A stretch of 57,380 nucleotides of DNA from a virus. The DNA lies in UHGV virus genome UHGV-0150885; one strand, 5' to 3'. The notes below the pieces were generated by a model, which did no database searches, had not been told where the DNA came from, and worked only from the letters and a program-made list of their open reading frames with translations. Shown piece after piece: positions 2,737 to 41,401 of the stretch (the first letter of the stretch is position 1; each line of letters begins with the position of its first letter). The translations under genes and the position numbers were made by a program.

Positions 2737-3389
2737 TTCCCCGTGTATTCGACGTGTCCGATACATCCATCAATAATAGCTTGCGCCATGTTGCGATAAT
2801 CGTGTGAAAACTCATTGTCGCGGTTAAAATTAATTTCTTTTGCTGCGTCTTCACCGATAACCTTAGTGGCAAGTGCAAACGCAATTTCAGCCAGTATTTT
2901 TTCTTTCGGATCTACATACAACTTATGAGCGAAAGGCTTCCATTCCCCGGCTTGTTCAAAATCAGGCGCATCCATTTCTACAAAAAGAGCAAGGCGATCA
3001 CTTATATACTTGTATTTCAGAATAACATATTTCCGACCATCGACAGGATCTAGAAGCTCAAGCCATACTCCGCATGGCGGCTTTTCTCCTGCCATCCATT
3101 CCGTAACTTCTGGCGTATCGCAATCATGCCGCTCATCTTCGATTAATTCGTCAATGATTTCACTTTCTTTATTCATGCCATCATCATCTTTATTAGATAA
3201 ATTGGCATATTTATCAAACTTCCAGCTTGCCGCCATAACAGAATAAGTGCCGCGAGTATCAGCGCGGACACCAACTAAATAGCATGATCCAAAATTATAT
3301 TCTTCCCTGCATGTCGATACTTCGAACGATGGGTAGCATTCAGGGTTAGTGCGATGGCTAATTATACCGATTACTTTTGATTTATTCAT
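2733..3389 (-). CDS. Hypothetical protein (218 aa, acidic)
   Basis: ORF track; start chosen at ATG with GAGGA SD; no recognisable domain. Confidence 0.5.
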   Translation of the reverse strand: MNKSKVIGIISHRTNPECYPSFEVSTCREEYNFGSCYLVGVRADTRGTYSVMAASWKFDKYANLSNKDDDGMNKESEIIDELIEDERHDCDTPEVTEWMAGEKPPCGVWLELLDPVDGRKYVILKYKYISDRLALFVEMDAPDFEQAGEWKPFAHKLYVDPKEKILAEIAFALATKVIGEDAAKEINFNRDNEFSHDYRNMAQAIIDGCIGHVEYTGK

Positions 3390-6464: not shown

Positions 6465-7583
6465 TTACAAAATGGAATATTCAGGGTAATAAACAAAGCG
6501 CCCGATTTCCCCATAATCCGGGCTGTAAATTATCACCGCCGCCAGCCGCCGCGACCGCCAACCGCCATTCGTTGAATAAGCGTCTTTACCCGCTAACGTG
6601 CCGTGGTGCTCAACGATCCCTAATGATGTTTCTACGACAGATTGATGATGCAGATGCCCCGTGTGAGCGTAAACCGCCGCCGACTTGCCGAAGTCCTCCC
6701 GCCAGTCAGAAACACAGGCAGCTAACAAATTTTCGGGTTTTTTGATGGTGTGCCCGTGATGATAAGCAAGGAATGTTTTACCGTACTGCGTGTGGTGGAC
6801 GATAGCAGGTGATACATCAACCGTTACGCGCGGTTCATCCTCGTAAAAAGCCGCCAGCGCCGCACGTAGCCAGATCATCCCCGACTGATCGTGATTGCCG
6901 GATAACACTTGTATCTCGACGTCCTTATGGTTTAACAACATTTTCCCCACCGCACGCCGGACCGACCGGATCGCCACATAAACAAGTTTTGCGTAGCGGC
7001 TATCCTGATCAAGAATATGCCCGCTTGTCGGTGTAACCGGGATCATCCCGTCAGAGTGAAGTAGATCGCCTCCGAGAAGCAAAACAGCCTTCTCAGACGT
7101 TGGTGCAGCGCCTACCGCGTAGTCGAAGAAGTCATTTAGCACGCGTTCGGCGATCCCGGTGTCGTAGCTTTCTCCGCATTCAGCTTTATGTGCAAGCGCC
7201 CCGATATGCAGATCGAATACCGGATAAAGGGCCAGGCTTTTTTGGAAATCAATTTCCGGCACTGGCACTACCTCCGCGCGTGGTATTTCTTCCGTGAATG
7301 CGTCGCAAGCCGCTTGCGTTAGCCTTTCCATTTCCTCACGGTCACGGGCCGTTTTAATCCAGCGCATGATTACATTGCCATCCTTATCAACGAGCAATGA
7401 TTCACCGTTAACACCGAAGCCAGGAGCGCGGCGCGTGGATATTAAACCGCGCTTAGCCAGCCGTGCGCCCAGGCGTTCGACGTTGCGTTTTGCCATTCCA
7501 TATTCTTCGGCTATTTGCTTGTAAGTCTTCCCCTTGTTGTACTCAGCGATCAGTTGCTCATCGCTGATCTTTCTCTGTGACAT
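6465..7583 (-). CDS. HTH domain + calcineurin-like metallophosphoesterase protein
   Basis: 372 aa; N-term YKQIAEEYGMAKRNVERL HTH; DLHIG, GGDLLHSDG, LSGNHD, GHLHH phosphoesterase motifs. Confidence 0.7.
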   Translation of the reverse strand: MSQRKISDEQLIAEYNKGKTYKQIAEEYGMAKRNVERLGARLAKRGLISTRRAPGFGVNGESLLVDKDGNVIMRWIKTARDREEMERLTQAACDAFTEEIPRAEVVPVPEIDFQKSLALYPVFDLHIGALAHKAECGESYDTGIAERVLNDFFDYAVGAAPTSEKAVLLLGGDLLHSDGMIPVTPTSGHILDQDSRYAKLVYVAIRSVRRAVGKMLLNHKDVEIQVLSGNHDQSGMIWLRAALAAFYEDEPRVTVDVSPAIVHHTQYGKTFLAYHHGHTIKKPENLLAACVSDWREDFGKSAAVYAHTGHLHHQSVVETSLGIVEHHGTLAGKDAYSTNGGWRSRRLAAVIIYSPDYGEIGRFVYYPEYSIL

Positions 7584-20247: not shown

Positions 20248-20426
20248 AAAACGAAATTAAAGATCTGCAAATAGATATTCAGCGTGAGGAACATGATTTA
20301 GAAACAATCCGACAAATCCAGGCTTTTCATATGCGCGAATTGCTTGCGCTAAAAGAGCTTGAGCGAAAGATGGTGCAATCCATTTCTGACCGTAAACACC
20401 TGGCGGCGCGTTACGGGGGTAAATAA
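20244..20426 (+). CDS. Hypothetical coiled-coil protein (60 aa)
   Basis: ORF track; coupled between rusA and Q. Confidence 0.45.
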   Translation: MKNEIKDLQIDIQREEHDLETIRQIQAFHMRELLALKELERKMVQSISDRKHLAARYGGK

Positions 20427-21148
20427 TGAATTTAGAATCCATTCTAAAATTCCACTTTCCTAAATCACCGCGATTGTCAGACGAAAGCCGGGGAACATCC
20501 CCGGATGCGCTTAATACGACGGATGCACTTACCGCCGCTGGTATGGCGCAATCGCGCGTAGAGCTTGGCTATAGCGCTTTTTTAGGGAAGATGGAACTAT
20601 CGCAAGCCGAAAAACACAAGGCCGTAGTATTGCTTACAGAGCGTTTAAGGGCTATGGCAAAAGATTACGAATACGTCATGGAGTTAAACGAGGATCAGCG
20701 CAATGGACTTATTATTCTTGTTGCCGTTTTCGCGTTTAGGGATTATTGCCAAAGCGCCGCTACGGAAAAAACTTGTATGGAGTGCGGCGGATATAAATTT
20801 ACGTTTGACGACTACGGGGAAAAACACCTTTGCAAAAAATGCAAGGGGCATGGGAAAGTTCGCAACCATTGTAAACAATGCAAAGGGCGCGGCGAGATAC
20901 CGGATAAAGCAGCCAGCAACGCGGCGGAAATGCCAGTTTTCAAAACGTGCCAGCACTGCGGCGGGCGTGGGTACTCACGTTTCCCGGTAGATCTTGTTCG
21001 GCAGGCGGTTAATCAGCTTGTTTTTCCGGTAAGCCGATCAACGTGGTGGAAAAAATATCGGGTTTTCTATGAGGACGCCATAGCGGAGCTATTCAAAGAG
21101 GAAGCCCGCGCGGAAAGCGAAATCAAGCGAGTGACACGGGGTGAATAA
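20426..21148 (+). CDS. Q: Late-gene antiterminator Q (phage 82/21 type)
   Basis: 240 aa; N-terminus LESILKFHFPKSPRLSDESRG like Q82 (LESVAKFHSPKSPMMSDSPRA); Cys-rich zinc-finger region. Confidence 0.85.
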   Translation: MNLESILKFHFPKSPRLSDESRGTSPDALNTTDALTAAGMAQSRVELGYSAFLGKMELSQAEKHKAVVLLTERLRAMAKDYEYVMELNEDQRNGLIILVAVFAFRDYCQSAATEKTCMECGGYKFTFDDYGEKHLCKKCKGHGKVRNHCKQCKGRGEIPDKAASNAAEMPVFKTCQHCGGRGYSRFPVDLVRQAVNQLVFPVSRSTWWKKYRVFYEDAIAELFKEEARAESEIKRVTRGE

Positions 21149-21348
21149 TGGATAAGCTGGAAATAAACGATCAGTTCGCTGTTATCTTGTTCGAAGATAA
21201 AACAGGCGGCGCATGGTGTAAGAAAGTCACTGGTACAGAAGCGCATTTAATTTTGAAAATAGCAAGCGCGTTACACGACGGCGAGTTACCTGCCATCCCT
21301 GTTAAGCCAGTCCATATTTACAAACGGGGTGACGATGATGAAGCCTAA
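21148..21348 (+). CDS. Hypothetical protein (66 aa)
   Basis: ORF track; first gene of tightly packed array downstream of Q. Confidence 0.45.
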   Translation: MDKLEINDQFAVILFEDKTGGAWCKKVTGTEAHLILKIASALHDGELPAIPVKPVHIYKRGDDDEA

Positions 21349-21607
21349 ATTAAAAGAACATCTTTTTGCAAAACTTGTTAATGACCTGACGTTATCAGCG
21401 CGGTTGTGTGGTGATACACAACAATTACGGGCGTGGATAGCAAGGGATTTGAAAAAATATATTGAGCCTGGCGGGCCGGGTGACGAAATGACGATGGACA
21501 AGGCCATCAAGCGCCGGACTGCTGAATGGTCAGTAAGTAATACCGGATTAACCGGATATATTGAAGGCTATAACGACTGTTTACAGGATCATAGCGATGG
21601 CAAGTAA
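21329..21607 (+). CDS. Hypothetical protein (92 aa)
   Basis: ORF track. Confidence 0.45.
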   Translation: MTMMKPKLKEHLFAKLVNDLTLSARLCGDTQQLRAWIARDLKKYIEPGGPGDEMTMDKAIKRRTAEWSVSNTGLTGYIEGYNDCLQDHSDGK

Positions 21608-21911
21608 AGATCTACATTTAAACCTGAAAGGAGAATACTTTTACGCCATCCGGGCGGGAAAGAAGGTGGAGGAATACCGGCTTTATAATGACTATTGGCG
21701 CAAGCGCCTGGAGGGGCGGGAATATGAACGCCTGATTATTAAGCTGGGGTATCCAGCCAGCCACGAAGCGCACCGGATCATAAACCTTCCTTATTTTGGG
21801 TATGAAGTGAAAATTATCACACATCCATTATTCGGCCCTGATCCGGTGAAAGTATTCGCAATTAAATGTGATGTGAATTGGATGTTAAGGTGGGGGAGCG
21901 ATGAAAAGTAA
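21597..21911 (+). CDS. Hypothetical protein, possible ASCH/PUA-like fold
   Basis: Start MASKDLHL; LKGEYFYAIRAGKKVEEYR resembles ASCH N-terminal strand pattern (weak). Confidence 0.4.
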   Translation: MASKDLHLNLKGEYFYAIRAGKKVEEYRLYNDYWRKRLEGREYERLIIKLGYPASHEAHRIINLPYFGYEVKIITHPLFGPDPVKVFAIKCDVNWMLRWGSDEK

Positions 21912-22113
21912 CCGTAAACGCCTGGTAAGGGCGTATGACAAAGCGTTAAAGGCTTTTGATGATCTGCGACACAATAAGCGCCAGCGCCGCAAGTGGGCGC
22001 GATTTTTTGTTAGTGAATGGCATGATGATGATTTCTTCCTGGAAGCGCGGCATATGACGCAGGAAGACGCCGACGCATTAGCTGATGATAACATTTACTA
22101 TATGATGTGGTGA
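21901..22113 (+). CDS. Hypothetical protein (70 aa)
   Basis: ORF track. Confidence 0.45.
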   Translation: MKSNRKRLVRAYDKALKAFDDLRHNKRQRRKWARFFVSEWHDDDFFLEARHMTQEDADALADDNIYYMMW

Positions 22114-22117
22114 TAAT

Positions 22118-22483
22118 ATGCAAATAATCATTGATTACCTTTGCCATGTATTCAATACAATTTTTGGCTTTTATCAACAACCATTTCTTAAAGAATGGGA
22201 TTCGATGCTAAACGATATTCTCGATAAAGGATTAATAATGGAGGTTGACGAGCTTACAATCAAATTTAATTATGAGGGTGAAATTTATCTAATTTGGGTC
22301 GGGAATAGATGGTATGCATACGGTCATATTTATTCAATTGGCGATAAATACATTAAAAGGGGTCAAGAATTCCGACCACGCTTCCGCACAATGCGCCGCC
22401 TGCATAACCTGCATATGAATCTCTTTGAAGACCAGGAAGCACGGGAATTATTTAAAATTTACGGAGGTAAATCATGGAGCTAA
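22118..22483 (+). CDS. Hypothetical protein (121 aa)
   Basis: ORF track. Confidence 0.45.
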   Translation: MQIIIDYLCHVFNTIFGFYQQPFLKEWDSMLNDILDKGLIMEVDELTIKFNYEGEIYLIWVGNRWYAYGHIYSIGDKYIKRGQEFRPRFRTMRRLHNLHMNLFEDQEARELFKIYGGKSWS

Positions 22484-22704
22484 AGATCTGGCGTGCTATC
22501 GACGTAGTTGACAATGAGTTAAGTATGTTTGCCACTGATGGAAAGCGCGTAGTGATCGCTACATGGACGCATAACCATGATGATATTGTTTTTCGTCGCA
22601 AAGCTGCGGAGTGGCTTTTCTCTGACGATGGCTACACGATGAACATCGCCCAGCTTGCCAGAATGAAAGATGAAATATTAACCGACAGCTACACAACTGC
22701 ATAG
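22474..22704 (+). CDS. Hypothetical protein (76 aa)
   Basis: ORF track. Confidence 0.45.
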   Translation: MELKIWRAIDVVDNELSMFATDGKRVVIATWTHNHDDIVFRRKAAEWLFSDDGYTMNIAQLARMKDEILTDSYTTA

Positions 22705-22708
22705 CGGG

Positions 22709-22948
22709 GTGAATATGCGTATCTATGAGCACAAGCGGGATAAAACCCGCTTTTTTGTTCGTGCTGGCGTGGCGTACCAGTATCACGACTGCGGGTATAT
22801 TGAGGCGCTTGCTTACGACCTGGATTTCGAGCAAGAAAAGGAGTGGTTTGATTTCAAGATTTACCGGAAGCGCAAACCGACGCACGACGAGCGCCACGCT
22901 ATCCGTGATTTTTTAATCAGCATTGACCGCTGGGAGGCAGAGGAATGA
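22709..22948 (+). CDS. Hypothetical protein (79 aa)
   Basis: ORF track. Confidence 0.45.
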   Translation: MNMRIYEHKRDKTRFFVRAGVAYQYHDCGYIEALAYDLDFEQEKEWFDFKIYRKRKPTHDERHAIRDFLISIDRWEAEE

Positions 22949-23238
22949 AAACGAAGAAAGCAGCAGATAAGAAAGCGTTGGTTATCGCCACAACGGATGT
23001 ATCGTTATTCACGAAGGGTGAAGAAATAGATCTTAAATTGCTTTTTGGTATGTTTGAACCACACGAAAAGCCGTGGTTTGTTCATGAAGATAAACAGGGA
23101 AATATGCGTGTCGTAGTGCCGGACAAAAACAGCGACATATTTTTTGCTATTCCAGATCCGTTACATGACGGTGAAATGTTGGCGGTATTGTTGATCGCTG
23201 ATGCTGTTACTTATAAGGGTAAAAAATATGAAAGTTAA
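22945..23238 (+). CDS. Hypothetical protein (97 aa)
   Basis: ORF track; overlapping stop/start. Confidence 0.45.
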   Translation: MKTKKAADKKALVIATTDVSLFTKGEEIDLKLLFGMFEPHEKPWFVHEDKQGNMRVVVPDKNSDIFFAIPDPLHDGEMLAVLLIADAVTYKGKKYES

Positions 23239-23455
23239 ATTCCTGCATGACCACGGATACCCATCATTAAAACGCGTAGTAGGGGAAGTGGTAGACGTAG
23301 TTCATTCTGATGATGTGACCTGCGTCATTATGGGTAAAGACCTCATCGCTCATGGTGCTGATGATCACTACATTAACCCGGCGTGGTCGTATACATTCAG
23401 CCTGGGGGATTTCGTAGGTGATAAGGGGCGCGGCCTGCAAGTAGTCGAGGGTTAA
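23228..23455 (+). CDS. Hypothetical protein (~75 aa)
   Basis: ORF track; start MKVKFLHD. Confidence 0.45.
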   Translation: MKVKFLHDHGYPSLKRVVGEVVDVVHSDDVTCVIMGKDLIAHGADDHYINPAWSYTFSLGDFVGDKGRGLQVVEG

Positions 23456-23459
23456 TATC

Positions 23460-23675
23460 ATGGACGTTTACGAGGATTTATACCTACAGACGAATACCCA
23501 CACCTTTTATTTTCTGAAAAACGGCGTCGTATGCCGCAGTGACGACGGGGTGATAATGAAGGAGTGGTTATTCAAGCGTAAAGACCTACTTGATGATCTG
23601 GTTTTTGCCGGGATATTCCGTAAACGTCCGGCTAACCTGGAAGAAGAAATGTTGATCGACGAGGTATTGAAATGA
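23460..23675 (+). CDS. Hypothetical protein (71 aa)
   Basis: ORF track. Confidence 0.45.
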   Translation: MDVYEDLYLQTNTHTFYFLKNGVVCRSDDGVIMKEWLFKRKDLLDDLVFAGIFRKRPANLEEEMLIDEVLK

Positions 23676-23923
23676 AAATGAAAGTGAATTATTTCAGAGC
23701 GAAAGATAAAGCAACAGGAAAGCGTGTGGCTATCCTGGTTAATGAAGCAAATTATATGTTTGTTCTCCAGCCGTGGTGCATGGCTGACTATAACGATGAT
23801 TATCGTCGTCACGCTGCGCGCGGCGCGGTCGGGATGAAAGGTTGGCAACCGCGCGACATGCTTAATTATTGCGACTGGAATCTGATAGCAAAATACACGG
23901 TCGATTATAAGGGAATATTCTGA
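23672..23923 (+). CDS. Hypothetical protein (83 aa)
   Basis: ORF track. Confidence 0.45.
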   Translation: MKMKVNYFRAKDKATGKRVAILVNEANYMFVLQPWCMADYNDDYRRHAARGAVGMKGWQPRDMLNYCDWNLIAKYTVDYKGIF

Positions 23924-24207
23924 TGGAAAGCTATTTTGATCGGATGTTTTGCCGCACAACTTGTAACGAATATAAATTTACCACGGGGCAGGCGTACACA
24001 ATTCACAGATTGCGCAATGCGACTACTGACCCGATGGTATTCGTTGCGAGTGATAACGAAGGGGTAATGTATCAGGTATTCTACTGCGGCGATCTTGATT
24101 ATGCACTGGTGAAAAACATTACCGGACAATGGTTAGCGCAATTTTCCAGATACCCGGCTGATGTTGATGTAAAAAATTATTTAAAGGTGGCTGATAATGC
24201 AGGTTAA
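23923..24207 (+). CDS. Small protein, member of tandem paralogue family (94 aa)
   Basis: Shares F-x-x-G-x-x-Y ... D-x-x-G-x-[WY]-x-[FY] pattern with next four ORFs. Confidence 0.5.
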   Translation: MESYFDRMFCRTTCNEYKFTTGQAYTIHRLRNATTDPMVFVASDNEGVMYQVFYCGDLDYALVKNITGQWLAQFSRYPADVDVKNYLKVADNAG

Positions 24208-24409
24208 ATGTTCATACTCAAGCAATGACAGCGTTTTCACGATTGGGCGAATTTATGACGTTCACATCGTTTATGGCAATGAAAATCACACAATGAATAA
24301 CTGCCTCGCCTTAATTGATAACCATGATGAGATCTGGATGTTCAGGCCAAGCTATCAGGGCGGCGAAATATCCGGCGTGGGTTTTGTTGCCAGCTTCGAA
24401 CGTTATTAA
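24197..24409 (+). CDS. Small protein, tandem paralogue family (70 aa)
   Basis: FTIGRIYDVHIVYG...IDNHDEIWMF. Confidence 0.5.
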   Translation: MQVKCSYSSNDSVFTIGRIYDVHIVYGNENHTMNNCLALIDNHDEIWMFRPSYQGGEISGVGFVASFERY

Positions 24410-24419
24410 AGGGGTAACC

Positions 24420-24671
24420 ATGAAACATTTATATTTTGAGGTAGTACAGACGCGCGATCGCGACATATTCGAAGAAGGAAAGATTTATTGCGGCGTTCAA
24501 ATCCACGGTGCACCGGGCGGTGAGGCGATGGCGATAACTGGCGATGATGATAAGGTTTATTTTGCTTATGTCACACGCTTTCCACACACTGACAAGGTTT
24601 ATTATCGCATCGTGCATGACTTCCAGGGCGTAGCTGTATTTTGTGACCGCGAAGGCAGTAAACCGGAATAG
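24420..24671 (+). CDS. Small protein, tandem paralogue family (~83 aa)
   Basis: FEEGKIYCGVQIHG...ITGDDDKVYFAY; AAAGGGG SD. Confidence 0.5.
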   Translation: MKHLYFEVVQTRDRDIFEEGKIYCGVQIHGAPGGEAMAITGDDDKVYFAYVTRFPHTDKVYYRIVHDFQGVAVFCDREGSKPE

Positions 24672-24680
24672 GTGGTTGTT

Positions 24681-24920
24681 ATGAGTCGGAATCACAGGTA
24701 TCAATGCACGTATTCACGATGCAGCGCGTTTTTTAAGAATGGCAAGATCTACGAAGTCAGCGCGGCATTGGTTGACGCGAAGGATCAGGAATATATCCAC
24801 GCCATTACTGACGACCAGGGCCAGCTATGGCGCTTTTATAAGATGGGGTGTGGCACGGCGCTTGTTTATGCGCGTACTGGTGGCGGCGCTTTTGCTGCAT
24901 TTTCGTATGTGGGGGTATGA
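24681..24920 (+). CDS. Small protein, tandem paralogue family (~79 aa)
   Basis: FKNGKIYEVSAALV...ITDDQGQLWRFY. Confidence 0.5.
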   Translation: MSRNHRYQCTYSRCSAFFKNGKIYEVSAALVDAKDQEYIHAITDDQGQLWRFYKMGCGTALVYARTGGGAFAAFSYVGV

Positions 24921-24922
24921 TA

Positions 24923-25141
24923 ATGACTATTTTAACGTGTCACGGATCTGATCTTGATTGTTTCGAGGACGGTTGCCAGTACGAAGCGGAAAAGCCAGGC
25001 GGATTACCGAAAAATCCGTTTTTAGTCGTCACAGATGCTTACGGTCACTTATGGTATGCAGCGCCCAGCAAGGCGCGTGGCTGGTGGCTGATTCAGAATG
25101 ACGATCGCGCGGTTGTAGTGGCCTTTAAGCAGGATGAATAA
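24923..25141 (+). CDS. Small protein, tandem paralogue family (~72 aa)
   Basis: FEDGCQYEAEKPG...VTDAYGHLWYA. Confidence 0.5.
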   Translation: MTILTCHGSDLDCFEDGCQYEAEKPGGLPKNPFLVVTDAYGHLWYAAPSKARGWWLIQNDDRAVVVAFKQDE

Positions 25142-25163
25142 AAGCGTGATCTACCCCGCAAAG

Positions 25164-25206
25164 TTTACAAAATGGCATTGTTCCGGCAGTGCCGTTTTGT
25201 TATATA
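25164..25206 (+). promoter_or_regulatory. Candidate late promoter PR' (TTTACAAAATGG box, -35 TTGTTC, 17 bp, -10 TATATA)
   Basis: Promoter-like hexamers about 175 bp upstream of tR'-like terminator and lysis genes. Confidence 0.45.
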
Positions 25207-25380
25207 TAAGTCAAGGAAAGACGGAAGGGGAGATAAGAAAATGAAACGCGAATATGTAAACACCATCAAAGGCATCGAAGCGGACCTGGCGCAAGGTTGG
25301 TGATTTGTAGCTATAAGCCGTGTTTGTATAGGTTAAACAAACGGATTAAAATATTTCCTAACAATGCGAAATTGTATTCA

Positions 25381-25405
25381 CCCGGCCCCGCGCCGGGTTT
25401 TTGCT
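25381..25405 (+). terminator. Rho-independent terminator (tR'-like) just upstream of holin
   Basis: CCCGGC-CCCGC-GCCGGG hairpin followed by TTTTTGCTTTG. Confidence 0.65.
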
Positions 25406-25420
25406 TTGTTGGGGGAATAA

Positions 25421-25633
25421 ATGATCGCCACGTTAATTACGCGAACAAGGGAGGCCGCAAGCTATGTAGCTGGTATTCTGACAACCATAATTGGCGGTTT
25501 ATCCCTGAATGACATAGCCGTGATAGTTGGTATCGGGTGCACGATAGGCACTTTCGCGGTTAACTGGTATTACAAGCGACAGGAGAATAAGCGGGAGCAG
25601 GAAAGGCACAACCTGGAGATGAAAAAATTATGA
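25421..25633 (+). CDS. Holin (two-TM, pinholin-like)
   Basis: 70 aa; two hydrophobic helices, charged C-tail; ATGA overlap with endolysin. Confidence 0.7.
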
Positions 25634-38702: not shown

Positions 38703-38927
38703 TTAAATATCAGCAATTTTTACAATGTTTTTGTCTTTAATGATTCTATTGCCGACTTGAAACCCTTTAACTAATCTCAACCAGGCTTCCTTTTGTGCTG
38801 GGTGATCAATGTGCTCCCATTCCTTGTTATTGTTTCTCCCGGCGTACACTTCGCCGTCGATGATTTTAAATTGTTCGCCTTTGTGGAAGCCACCAATTTT
38901 TTCATAGATACCATCATAACGTTTCAT
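38703..38927 (-). CDS. Moron protein (74 aa), hypothetical
   Basis: Same 5' translation-initiation sequence (GGGGTGTTTTATGAAACG) as downstream gene. Confidence 0.5.
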   Translation of the reverse strand: MKRYDGIYEKIGGFHKGEQFKIIDGEVYAGRNNNKEWEHIDHPAQKEAWLRLVKGFQVGNRIIKDKNIVKIADI

Positions 38928-38979
38928 AAAACACCCCCACTTAATTGTTTTGTTTAACTATCTTTTCCTTTGACTTCCT

Positions 38980-39021
38980 TATACAAAATGGAGTCGGTAA
39001 AGTAAAGCCATTTTGTATAAA
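38980..39021. promoter_or_regulatory. Palindromic divergent promoter unit: TATACAAAATGG -16- CCATTTTGTATA, with TATAAA/TATAAG -10 hexamers in both orientations
   Basis: Perfect 12-bp inverted repeat; each box sits 24 nt upstream of a -10-like hexamer on its strand. Confidence 0.45.
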
Positions 39022-39058
39022 ATAGAGGCACAGATCACATTTTGTATGAGGTTAAATC

Positions 39059-41401
39059 ATGGCTACCAGTTTAGGTACAATTTATTACGAGATCGACGCC
39101 AAAACAGGGCAACTCCTTGTCGTACAGCGACAGGCCGATCAGACATTCGACAGTATCGAGCGCGGCGCAAAACGTGCTGACCGCCAGGTTAATACACTGA
39201 AAACATCAATCAAAGCACTGACCAGGGTTATCCACCTGTTAGTCGCAGCGGAGGCCGTGCGCCAGTTTATTGACATGGCAGAGCAGGCAAAACAGCTACG
39301 CATAAAAATCAAAATGCTGACAGGTGACGCAGAAAGCGCAAACCGGGTTTTTGATGGCCTTAAATCTATCGCTCACCAGACCGGGCAAAGTATTAAAGAT
39401 ACAACCGACCTATGGCAAGGTTTAGCCATCTCATTAAAAAATACATCTGCCACCGAAGGGCAGATCCTTAATCTGGTAGGCACGCTTCAAAAAATGGGGG
39501 CGTTAGGCGGGGCATCAGCCGAACAAATGTCTAACTCCATGCGCCAATTCCGGCAGGCGGTTGACGGCGGCGTACTGCGTGCGGAAGAATTTAACAGTTT
39601 ACTGGAAAACACCCCAACCATCGTACAAACAATGGCAAAACAAATGGGGTTATCAATGGGCCAGTTCCGCGCCGAAATGCTGGAAGGTAAGATCACCGCT
39701 GAAAGAATGGTCAACGCTATCCAGGCGGCAACGAAAGAAACAAACGAGCAATTTGAACAACTCCCGCGCACGTCCGGCGTTGCGTTCAATTCGCTAAAAA
39801 TCGAAGTCATGGGACTGGTTGAAAAACTCGATGATCTATTAGGCGTGTCAGACAGAGTGGTCACTATCCTGGATAATACTGCCACTGGTGGACGATGGCT
39901 GGGCGAAAAAGTGAGTTTTGCAGCTAACTGCTTTAATACATTGAAGCGCGCTGGAGGTGAGTTTATCGACATGTTTGATGATGTTGCGGTTAAGGCTAAG
40001 GAGGTTGCCGACAAGATCATCGAAATGGTGACGCCAATTAAGGCAATGATGGATGCTTATAAGTGGGCGAAGGAATTGGTCGGAAAAAGCAAGGATGAAT
40101 ATAACAGCGATCCGTTCAAGAAATACGGTAAACGCTTAGGTTGGGCGATGTTAGCATGGGAAGACCATCAAGGAATGCTTAAACGCACAGAAGAAGCGCA
40201 GAAGGAAGAACAAGCCTCAAATAATGATGGCAGTATCACCGGATTTGACAAACCAGTTGGCAAGCCGAAAAAACAGAAGAAAGCGAAAAAATCAGACTAT
40301 GACCGCTTAGGCGATCAGGGTATCAGTGTTTCCGACCAGTACAACAAAGACGCCGCCGCCATGCGCAAAGCATTAAAGAGCGGCATGGCCATTGATGCTG
40401 CCTTCGCCCAGGGCAAAATCACGCTCCTTGAATACAAAGGCGCTATGAAGGGCATAAGAGAAGAAAGGGATCGCACGCTGGCTGGACTTGAAGCCGAAGC
40501 CTTGCAAGATAAATGGGATAACATGATTAATCCTATGGATAAACTCAAAGGGCAAGTAGATCCCATTCAGCAGGCGCAAAATGAATGGGCCATCCGTAAG
40601 CAAATGTTGTTAGATCTGAACGCCTCAGAGGCACAAATCCGGGCTGAACAACTCCAGCATGAGCAAACCATCGCCAACCTGAAGTGGGAACAATGGCAGG
40701 CGCAAAGCGATACTAACGCCCTAATAGGCGATTGCGTCAGCGGCTTAAAAGGCGGCATGAGCAACGCTATCACCGGATTATTGAACGGTACGCAATCCCT
40801 CAGTGAGATGTTTGCTAACCTGGGAAGCAATATACTCGGTACGGTGGGTAACAGGCTTGCCGACATTGCCGGGAACTGGATAGCCGATCAAATCATGATG
40901 GAAAGTCAGAGTAAGGCAACGCAAGCCAGCACCACGGCTGGCGCGGTAGCGGCGCAAGGTCAGATTGCAGCGGCAGCGGCCCCGGCGGCAGCGGCGACAG
41001 CGGCGTCAACTGGCGGTAGCTGGGCGGCGGCTGGCGCGGCGGCACTATCCGCGATCATGTCACTGGCGACGTCGATTTTCGGCGGCGGGCGCTACAACGG
41101 CGGCGCGGTTAACGGTGGCAATCTTTACAGGGTTGGTGAGCACGGTATACCAGAACTGTTTACTACCACTGGCGGGAAACAGTACATGATCCCCGGTGAA
41201 GGTGGGCGTGTTACACCAGGCCGCGACCTGGGCGGCAGCGGTGGCATCAACATGCCTGTCAGTATCACAGTTCAAACGACAAACGGTTTTAGTGATGATG
41301 ATAGCCGCAGACTTGAAGACACAATGAAGCGCGTAGCTATGAGTGTAGTCAGAGAACAAAGCACGCGTCCTGGCGGCATATTGCAACCACGCCGCAAATA
41401 A
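39059..41401 (+). CDS. H: Tail tape measure protein
   Basis: 780 aa; long helical protein with Gly/Ala-rich C-terminal segment; position before gpM. Confidence 0.85.
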   Translation: MATSLGTIYYEIDAKTGQLLVVQRQADQTFDSIERGAKRADRQVNTLKTSIKALTRVIHLLVAAEAVRQFIDMAEQAKQLRIKIKMLTGDAESANRVFDGLKSIAHQTGQSIKDTTDLWQGLAISLKNTSATEGQILNLVGTLQKMGALGGASAEQMSNSMRQFRQAVDGGVLRAEEFNSLLENTPTIVQTMAKQMGLSMGQFRAEMLEGKITAERMVNAIQAATKETNEQFEQLPRTSGVAFNSLKIEVMGLVEKLDDLLGVSDRVVTILDNTATGGRWLGEKVSFAANCFNTLKRAGGEFIDMFDDVAVKAKEVADKIIEMVTPIKAMMDAYKWAKELVGKSKDEYNSDPFKKYGKRLGWAMLAWEDHQGMLKRTEEAQKEEQASNNDGSITGFDKPVGKPKKQKKAKKSDYDRLGDQGISVSDQYNKDAAAMRKALKSGMAIDAAFAQGKITLLEYKGAMKGIREERDRTLAGLEAEALQDKWDNMINPMDKLKGQVDPIQQAQNEWAIRKQMLLDLNASEAQIRAEQLQHEQTIANLKWEQWQAQSDTNALIGDCVSGLKGGMSNAITGLLNGTQSLSEMFANLGSNILGTVGNRLADIAGNWIADQIMMESQSKATQASTTAGAVAAQGQIAAAAAPAAAATAASTGGSWAAAGAAALSAIMSLATSIFGGGRYNGGAVNGGNLYRVGEHGIPELFTTTGGKQYMIPGEGGRVTPGRDLGGSGGINMPVSITVQTTNGFSDDDSRRLEDTMKRVAMSVVREQSTRPGGILQPRRK

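Follow-up and report, generated by a model that had tools for sequence, protein, structure and literature searches.

The virus genome UHGV-0150885 (57,380 nucleotides, the whole of which we refer to as the window) is a complete, metagenome-derived, mEp021-like (mEpimmI) temperate coliphage that carries a block of sixteen small genes, g01 to g16, between the antiterminator gene Q and the holin gene. We found that the last five of these, g12 to g16, are true and ancient paralogues that form a tandem array. Structure models of g15 and g16 predict for this family the six-stranded small beta-barrel of Gp54 from Escherichia phage Bas11, so that g12-g16 would constitute a new sequence family with a known, rare fold; their fixed-order tandem arrangement is not described in the literature that we found. 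The mEpimmI group comprises Nus-dependent, non-lambdoid temperate coliphages with mEp021 as the type phage (PMC11893012). The five paralogues are as follows.

g12, 23923-24207, + strand: 94 aa, subfamily F, the rarest (5 of 32 genomes).
g13, 24197-24409, + strand: 70 aa, subfamily E; residues 28-37 form a variable loop.
g14, 24420-24671, + strand: 83 aa, subfamily C.
g15, 24681-24920, + strand: 79 aa, subfamily A.
g16, 24917-25141, + strand: 74 aa (72 aa if started from 24923), subfamily B, always last in the array.

Direct similarity among the five proteins was low (~20% amino-acid identity), with a best BLASTP E value of 1e-4 in a tiny database. Leave-one-out hidden Markov models (HMMs) ranked the omitted protein first among the 339 six-frame open reading frames (ORFs) of the window for g12 (E = 0.014), g13 (4e-5), g14 (2e-4), and g15 (2e-6); g16 was not recovered among these ORFs. 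Comparison of subfamily alignments of database homologues with hhalign joined g12 to g13 (P = 1.9e-4), g13 to g15 (P = 1.7e-5), and g14 to g15 (P = 3.1e-5), and both g13 and g15 matched phrog_31142. Jackhmmer, run on the combined ORFs of the window and six related loci, connected all five, g14 marginally and g16 via intermediates, while drawing in no ORF from outside the Q-to-holin block; the one other match was a weak one, to an orthologue of g08 (E = 0.004). A sequence-only reading of the window had proposed that the last five genes were paralogues of a small domain with two shared motifs, and the relationship was borne out by these profile results together with the motif counts. The motif F-x-x-G-x-x-Y, found at residues 14-19 in all five proteins and in 2 of the 334 other ORFs of the window, held up as proposed. 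The second motif as originally written, [TD]-D-x-x-G-x-[WY]-x-[FY], matched none of the five; four of them fit it once the register is corrected to D-x-x-[GDE]-x-x-[WY]-x-[FYVA]. By sequence g16 is the weakest member, and its assignment to the family depends on transitive links and on its predicted fold.

The family is confined to this phage group in the searches made. Searching 5.8 billion proteins through a word index yielded 60 matches, for which every named source was E. coli or an Escherichia phage. An HMMER scan of 1.84 billion representative proteins recovered E. coli-phage relatives, one added variant of g16, and beta-propeller repeat proteins. The propellers (NHL, Reg_prop, SGL, and the 'Cake' designer propellers in the PDB) scored ~4.5 bits per repeat with partial domain cover, and we rejected them as homologues because their significance arose only from summing weak repeats on a single hairpin motif, D-x-x-G-x-x-W. 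None of the GTDB species-representative genomes encoded the g15 subfamily, and all 23 IMG/VR loci were on contigs of ≤57 kb, most of them 50-57 kb in length.

Iterated HMM searches of 32 genomes, most of which were picked because they carried subfamily A, delineated at least eight subfamilies, namely A, B, C, E, and F, represented in the window as listed above, and D, G, and H, which are not found there. Seven of the subfamilies form one tandem array right before a common intergenic element, always ordered [F or G][D][E][C] A B, and the patterns observed were DAB, ECAB, DCAB, GDAB, FECAB, DECAB, and GDCAB (3-5 copies). Subfamily A occurred in 31 of these genomes; the remaining one had a truncated copy and was also missing B. 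We found no family member in mEp021, and since related phages differ in copy number from 0 to 5, the paralogues are accessory. Subfamily H, a divergent eighth member, was located outside the main array in three relatives, upstream of Q near the RusA gene (2814-3110 in the mEp044 locus; from 800 and from 549 in the two others). We found no nucleotide repeats among the paralogues, which would be a sign of recent duplication, and the duplications are therefore old. The array itself looks like an old structure whose present diversity arises from cassette gain and loss by recombination and not from ongoing duplication. The tandem amplification suggested from sequence alone thus stands insofar as these are old tandem paralogues, but not as a recent process, given their low identity, the missing nucleotide repeats, and the fixed gene order.

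The paralogues are under purifying selection. Ratios of nonsynonymous to synonymous change (dN/dS), obtained by crude Nei-Gojobori counting, were 0.04-0.21 for orthologues of g12, g13, g15, and g16; windows for subfamilies B and D were set aside owing to indels in the ungapped extraction. The corresponding polymorphism ratio (pN/pS) of g13 was 0.23 overall across six distinct alleles, and its variable loop (residues 26-40) reached 0.47 vs. 0.0-0.13 in the N-terminal 25 residues. The loop is therefore relaxed compared to the rest of the protein, yet still <1. Apart from loop residues 28-37, g13 alleles were >90% conserved, and the loop occurred in at least four unrelated-looking versions (NENHTMNNCLA, NGISDVGVALV, NTVSDARETLV, and NEAHRMSGCLA). 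The diversifying selection that had been suggested for the paralogues was not supported, as no ratio exceeded 1 and the g13 loop was the maximum.

Structure models of g15 and g16 connected the family to Gp54. The AlphaFold2 (AF2) model of g15, for which we used a family alignment of 25 sequences, had a predicted local distance difference test score (pLDDT) of 81.9 and a predicted template modelling score (pTM) of 0.72, and consisted of six strands, the first and second of which were joined by a long loop. Its best PDB match was Gp54 of Bas11 (PDB 9AXB; PF25180, 'Phage antiviral trigger protein Gp54'), and g16, modelled from its own separate alignment, had the same best match. The predicted models show the defining features of the 9AXB fold, a six-stranded small beta-barrel with a prominent beta1-beta2 loop, and the next-best structural neighbours were SH3-like small barrels. 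AlphaFold2 could not have learned 9AXB, because that structure was released in November 2024, after the AlphaFold2 training date. Foldseek searches of BFVD returned many uncharacterised proteins from T1-like and other enterobacterial siphophages, mostly 63-87 aa in length with template modelling (TM) scores of 0.6-0.8, and the predicted fold thus appears to be widespread among small phage proteins.

We rejected sequence homology to Gp54 after hhalign comparisons, using either one sequence or an alignment of 12 Gp54 sequences, and after shuffled Smith-Waterman alignments, in which z-scores against Gp54 were <1. None of g12-g16 matched PF25180 at E values up to 10 using hmmscan (the gathering score is 27 bits, and Gp54 itself scores 116 bits). 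In the models, F-x-x-G before beta2 occupies the position of F21/G24 in Gp54, and G-x-x-W in beta4 that of G40/W43. Both G24 and W43 are residues altered in Gp54 escape mutants and are contacts to CapRel, and we treat the predicted coincidence of motifs as a lead only. Four of the five paralogues have an isoelectric point (pI) of 4.7-5.5 (net charge -2 to -5), and the pI of Gp54 is 5.2. Apart from glycine, the invariant residues of the family (F, G, Y, and F) are hydrophobic. No signal peptide was seen by eye in g12-g16, and no hydrophobic segments were apparent.

Gp54 is a 66-aa protein, non-essential in the laboratory, that activates CapRelSJ46, a fused toxin-antitoxin, whose antitoxin/sensor domain it binds 1:1 with a dissociation constant (Kd) of 800 nM, with the Gp54 barrel partly unfolding during activation (PMC11578894). 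Its close homologues in Bas5, Bas8, Bas10, and SECphi27 do not activate CapRelSJ46, and the authors of that study speculate that Gp54 may inhibit another defence (PMC11578894). The fold was described as very rare, and we found no paper in the later literature that assigned Gp54 a function. In Bas11, Gp54 is encoded within a run of small genes, gp50-gp55 (38737-40367, minus strand); matches to our family HMM elsewhere in Bas11 were non-significant (E = 0.015-0.16).

The sequence surrounding the block, from Q to the lysis cassette, contains the following features.

Q antiterminator gene, 20426-21148, + strand: PF03589 Antiterm, E = 1e-28.
Element A hairpin, 25167-25200, + strand: 15-bp stem followed by a U/A-rich tract, directly after the array.
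Gene remnant of 20 codons, 25241-25303, + strand: opening gene of a second small-gene block, cut at a deletion/recombination junction.
Candidate late promoter, 25324-25365, + strand: -35 TTGTAT at 25324-25329, 17-nt spacer, -10 TAAAAT at 25347-25352.
Strong intrinsic terminator, 25380-25405, + strand: seven-pair stem with 6 G-C pairs and a T-run, 16 nt before the holin start.
Holin, HP1-type, 25421-25633, + strand: first gene of the lysis cassette, PF16080, E = 1e-18.
Lysozyme, 25630-26121, + strand: PF00959.
Lysis protein, 26097-26579, + strand: PF03245.

The Q protein was 33.6% identical to lambda Q over its full length (residues 1-238) and 32.8% identical to P22 gp23. Residues 136-183 matched the DnaJ CXXCXGXG zinc-finger domain, although below threshold (E = 1e-5). 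NinG and RusA are encoded just upstream. There is no intergenic space between Q and g01, as the Q stop codon overlaps the g01 start (ATGA), and all junctions within the block fall between -14 and +10 nt. In every relative examined, the Q stop overlaps the following start codon irrespective of which cassette comes next, which places the recombination junction exactly at the end of Q. We found no sigma-70-like site within Q, and we discarded a promoter embedded in the coding sequence of Q or g06, since neither had a stretch of suppressed synonymous change.

Element A most likely is an intrinsic terminator that closes the block. Its RNA fold had an energy of -19.8 kcal/mol (z = -5.3). In relatives the stem was conserved and the loop varied, with one U.G pair replaced by U-A, and ARNold called terminators at this element in the mEp010 and mEp044 records. 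mEp021 does not have element A. The element is overlapped by a promoter-like TTGTTC-17-TGtTATATA, and we downgraded an alternative in which 25164-25208 is the late promoter and its spacer contains a palindrome that binds Q, because the hairpin keeps its stem with a variable loop and because of its absence from mEp021. The 280-bp gap after g16 is composite: positions 25141-25245 correspond to the DNA that follows a g16-type gene in relatives, and positions ~25315-25421 to pre-holin DNA. Relatives contain ~2 kb more, with 8-10 small genes between element A and the holin. The short form missing this second block was 100% identical across three independent datasets.

Downstream of the junction marked by the gene remnant, AACAAT at 25360-25365 begins 7 nt past the -10 TAAAAT, in the position of the pause-inducing AACGAT of lambda pR', which we read directly as TTGACT-17-TAAATT, 6 nt, AACGAT. 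The lambda AACGAT is reportedly a sigma-dependent pause element for Q loading, a finding said to come from Ring, Yarnell and Roberts in 1996. The ~75 nt before the holin (25336-25410) were almost invariant in seven genomes, next to a holin gene that has diverged (third-codon-position identity of 0.47). If the 25336-25410 element is the promoter, its leader RNA would be only ~45 nt long. The terminator stem at 25380-25405 was invariant in the same number of genomes and is orthologous to TERM_5 annotated in mEp021, which we assume from the numbering to be t5. Terminator t5 is among those demonstrated experimentally, and the N-like antiterminator Gp17 and nut sites are conserved in the group (PMC11893012). 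Because the sole conserved promoter-like and terminator elements lie distal to the block, the layout fits co-transcription of the block with Q, and delayed-early expression is plausible.

Taking the whole package together, we lean modestly towards an accessory block in the early operon that encodes dispensable Gp54-fold protein binders with host or defence targets. The block, beginning at the Q stop, would belong to the early-right operon and form its distal end, with Gp17 antitermination letting early-right transcripts reach Q and the genes beyond it. Transcription of the block would end at the element A hairpin, and the Q-dependent late promoter and terminator (25324-25405) would come next, followed by the lysis genes. 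The paralogues would be small cytoplasmic protein binders of 70-95 aa, made with Q in the delayed-early phase, and each subfamily would bind its own host or host-defence protein during lytic growth. They would be dispensable for the basic lytic cycle, since mEp021 is without them, and a protein-binding role is suggested because the invariant residues look structural and not catalytic. A host- or defence-directed role is our best guess by analogy, and is a reasonable hypothesis because the predicted fold matches that of Gp54, a dispensable binder of a host immunity protein.

Several observations weigh against this reading. The match to the Gp54-type fold comes from predicted models, and for g16 one of five AF2 models was confident (pLDDT of 81.5 vs. 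55-59). In sequence, hhalign of the window family vs. the 12-sequence Gp54 alignment gave a probability of about 0.1% (0.13%), and the likeness may reflect convergence on a small barrel. Within the family, g16 was weakly related to the other subfamilies by hhalign (P = 0.06-0.09), and g15 is mildly basic (pI of 8.9). The sole demonstrated activity of Gp54 is being sensed by CapRelSJ46. With regard to transcription, we infer the late promoter at 25324-25365 from sequence, its -35 was not conserved in three relatives, and the transcription map of relatives may differ given their ~2 kb of extra genes.

An alternative that we regard as doubtful is that the five paralogues are a dedicated anti-defence battery in which each protein inhibits or decoys another immunity protein, e.g., CapRel-type zinc-finger-like sensors, with the varying array composition reflecting an arms race. 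This would agree with the match to the fold of Gp54, a CapRelSJ46 sensor-domain binder that its authors suggest may inhibit another defence (PMC11578894), as well as with the accessory and modular nature of the family, its early-operon location, and the variable g13 loop. However, there was no positive selection, even at the maximum in that loop, and the fixed and old order of the array gives no indication of rapid turnover. Gp54 is known as a trigger of defence and not as an inhibitor, and PADLOC, a defence and not an anti-defence library, gave no match to known families for any of the 16 proteins. It is quite unlikely that the paralogues are instead small nucleic-acid-binding barrels (SH3-, Sm-, or KOW-like) regulating transcription, translation, or DNA metabolism around the early-to-late switch. 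Their next-best structural neighbours, their proximity to Q and the recombination genes, and the reported likeness of the g10 orthologue to RegA (PMC11893012), an RNA-binding protein, would suit such a role, but the acidity of four of the five proteins, their conserved hydrophobic and glycine rather than basic residues, and the viability of mEp021 without the whole family do not.

A role as virion-associated or assembly accessory proteins, made before morphogenesis, is in our estimate very improbable. It draws on the detection of mEp021 gp41, encoded in the same block, in purified virions (PMC11893012) and on one structural neighbour in BFVD labelled 'putative minor capsid protein'. Conversely, the genes lie outside the structural module, their 0-5 copies differ from the pattern of core capsid and tail genes, and the family is not in mEp021, the source of the analysed virion proteome (PMC11893012). 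We count as refuted, and give next to no credence to, the view that the shared motif arose by chance or that the ORFs are not genes. The weak pairwise BLASTP similarity and the occurrence of a D-x-x-G-x-x-W hairpin in beta-propeller blades speak for it, whereas the leave-one-out HMMs, profile-profile comparisons, and jackhmmer tie the five together, independent alignments of g15 and g16 yielded one fold, and the ORFs show purifying selection, ribosome binding sites (RBSs), and independent gene calls.

All sixteen ORFs of the block are genuine genes. ORF listing and inspection of start sites placed exactly 16 genes in the Q-to-holin interval, all on the + strand and encoding 66-121 aa, and a G-rich Shine-Dalgarno-like motif precedes all 16 starts. 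Neighbouring genes overlap by 1-14 nt at 10 of the 15 junctions and are separated by gaps of 4-10 nt at the other five. The JGI gene caller independently produced the same 16 products, with the g16 start two codons later. Across six related loci, orthologue dN/dS was 0.01-0.23 in measurable pairs for the 15 genes alignable without gaps (g14 was left out, and two pairs were saturated in dS). Both the sixteen tightly packed same-strand ORFs and the identity of the upstream gene as Q, as given in the sequence-only reading, were confirmed, the former by gene number, sizes, RBSs, and independent calls, and the latter by the PF03589 match. The eleven genes preceding the array are as follows.

g01, 21148-21348, + strand: 66 aa, acidic; phrog_35000; dN/dS 0.15-0.23; RBS GGGGTGA.
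g02, 21335-21607, + strand: 90 aa; phrog_29262, E = 2e-55; dN/dS 0.06-0.10.
g03, 21597-21911, + strand: 104 aa; phrog_625, E = 8e-35.
g04, 21901-22113, + strand: 70 aa, basic; phrog_8758; dN/dS 0.09-0.14.
g05, 22118-22483, + strand: 121 aa; phrog_16975, E = 3e-54; dN/dS 0.04-0.17.
g06, 22474-22704, + strand: 76 aa, first core gene; phrog_38280; dN/dS 0.01-0.11.
g07, 22715-22948, + strand: 77 aa, core; phrog_30442.
g08, 22945-23238, + strand: 97 aa, flexible; phrog_33175.
g09, 23228-23455, + strand: 75 aa, core; phrog_5009; dN/dS 0.02-0.08.
g10, 23460-23675, + strand: 71 aa, core; orthologue of mEp021 gene 41.
g11, 23672-23923, + strand: 83 aa, basic, core; phrog_38609; dN/dS 0.06-0.09.

None of the 16 proteins had a significant match in sequence searches of Pfam, NCBIfam, PADLOC, and the PDB, and in PHROGs they matched families with no assigned function, except for one weak match of g05 to a 'membrane protein' family in the moron category (E = 1.9e-4). 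Scanning the block for Rfam families and tRNAs gave no match. The block region (3,994 bp) had 84-89% nucleotide identity to Escherichia phages MagusPhagus, mEp010, mEp013, mEp044, and mEp554, and nucleotide searches found 35 E. coli prophages with the same range of identity. The window corresponds to JGI metagenome contig 3300045988 Ga0495776_146573. Copies of the 4,274-bp block that were 100% identical occurred in two further public datasets, which rules out an assembly artefact. The genes g06, g07, g09, g10, and g11 were present in all six compared loci, including mEp021, and make up a conserved core that g08 joins in most relatives; the remaining block genes are cassettes that vary between related phages. 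Accordingly flexible, g01 is missing from mEp021, in which the g06 orthologue directly follows Q.

Several of the individual genes had additional features. The g03 protein may be ASCH-like, with a sub-threshold match to the Pfam ASCH family (E = 0.13), and PGAP names its orthologues 'RNA-binding protein' or 'ASCH domain-containing protein'. A terminator-like site in g04 (21984-22000) was discarded since its T-run was not conserved. The first codons of g07 contain a terminator-like hairpin at 22733-22752, with AAGCGGG and CCCGCTT arms around ATAAAA and then a T-run (TTTTTTGT). It was invariant across nine relatives except mEp010, in which two synonymous changes swap G-C to C-G. As these changes are compensatory and preserve the stem, they suggest that the hairpin is a functional RNA or DNA structure within the block. 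Orthologues of g08 aligned to the paralogue-family profile by hhalign with P = 0.0025 over 48 columns (probability of 12%) and had HMM E values of 0.1-0.5, and g08 might be related very remotely to the paralogue family or share its fold.

The g10 protein was 91.5% identical by tblastn to mEp021_41 (6716-6925 of the mEp021 locus), and the mEp021 record annotates gene 41 as a virion structural protein. The mEp021 gp41 was detected by mass spectrometry of virions, is kept in 48 of 48 group genomes, and is RegA-like by PLMSearch (PMC11893012). It was thus present in purified virions though encoded far from the structural module. The g10 ORF is 11 codons longer in relatives, where it overlaps g11, and synonymous variation within g10 was suppressed at 23619-23654.

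The array differs from Gp54 in its genetic setting, as Gp54 is one gene in virulent T1-like Drexlerviridae and the window family comprises 3-5 divergent tandem paralogues in a temperate phage group. Other small barrels were less similar. SH3-like barrels and the PliC/PhiA lysozyme-inhibitor barrels scored far below Gp54; SH3 domains are five-stranded, and PliC and PhiA are periplasmic. Beta-propeller blades (PQQ-like 'Cake', NHL, and Reg_prop) have in common with the family an F-x-x-G ... D-G-x-h-[WY] hairpin at the motif level only, and the window proteins are predicted to be single-domain barrels and not propellers.

At the level of the whole block, the nin region of lambda and P22 is comparable in having small, overlapping, mostly dispensable genes that vary between relatives, and in sharing an N-type antitermination transcript with Q. 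However, the nin region lies upstream of Q, whereas the window block lies downstream, where lambda pR' sits 78 bp past the Q stop, and none of the nin gene families matches any of the 16 proteins. Stx-converting lambdoid phages also carry cargo between their Q and holin genes, where it lies downstream of pR'/tR' and its expression is Q-dependent and late. In contrast, Q of the window abuts the block, and the sole conserved promoter-like and terminator elements are at the distal end.

These results identify the region as a variable accessory-gene interval of an mEpimmI phage, and sketch a regulatory layout from Q to the lysis genes in this group that is absent from its published description. 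Gp54 is among the few phage proteins shown to be directly recognised by a bacterial immunity protein, and our finding suggests that its fold recurs without recognisable sequence similarity in prevalent temperate gut coliphages. The array provides candidates for learning how Gp54-fold proteins serve a phage, and whether it is the fold or a particular sequence that defences sense. By analogy, and rather improbably in our assessment, the array could be a set of Gp54-fold adaptors that engage immune sensors, either CapRel-type or others with zinc-finger-like sensor domains. Each of the eight or more subfamilies would block or decoy its own sensor, and temperate mEpimmI phages would combine 0-5 cassettes to suit the defences that their E. 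coli hosts carry; if so, the six-stranded barrel would be a general scaffold for phage immune evasion that some defences have come to detect. If the paralogues prove to be ordinary dispensable cargo, the analysis would still give a cleaner annotation of 16 hypothetical genes.

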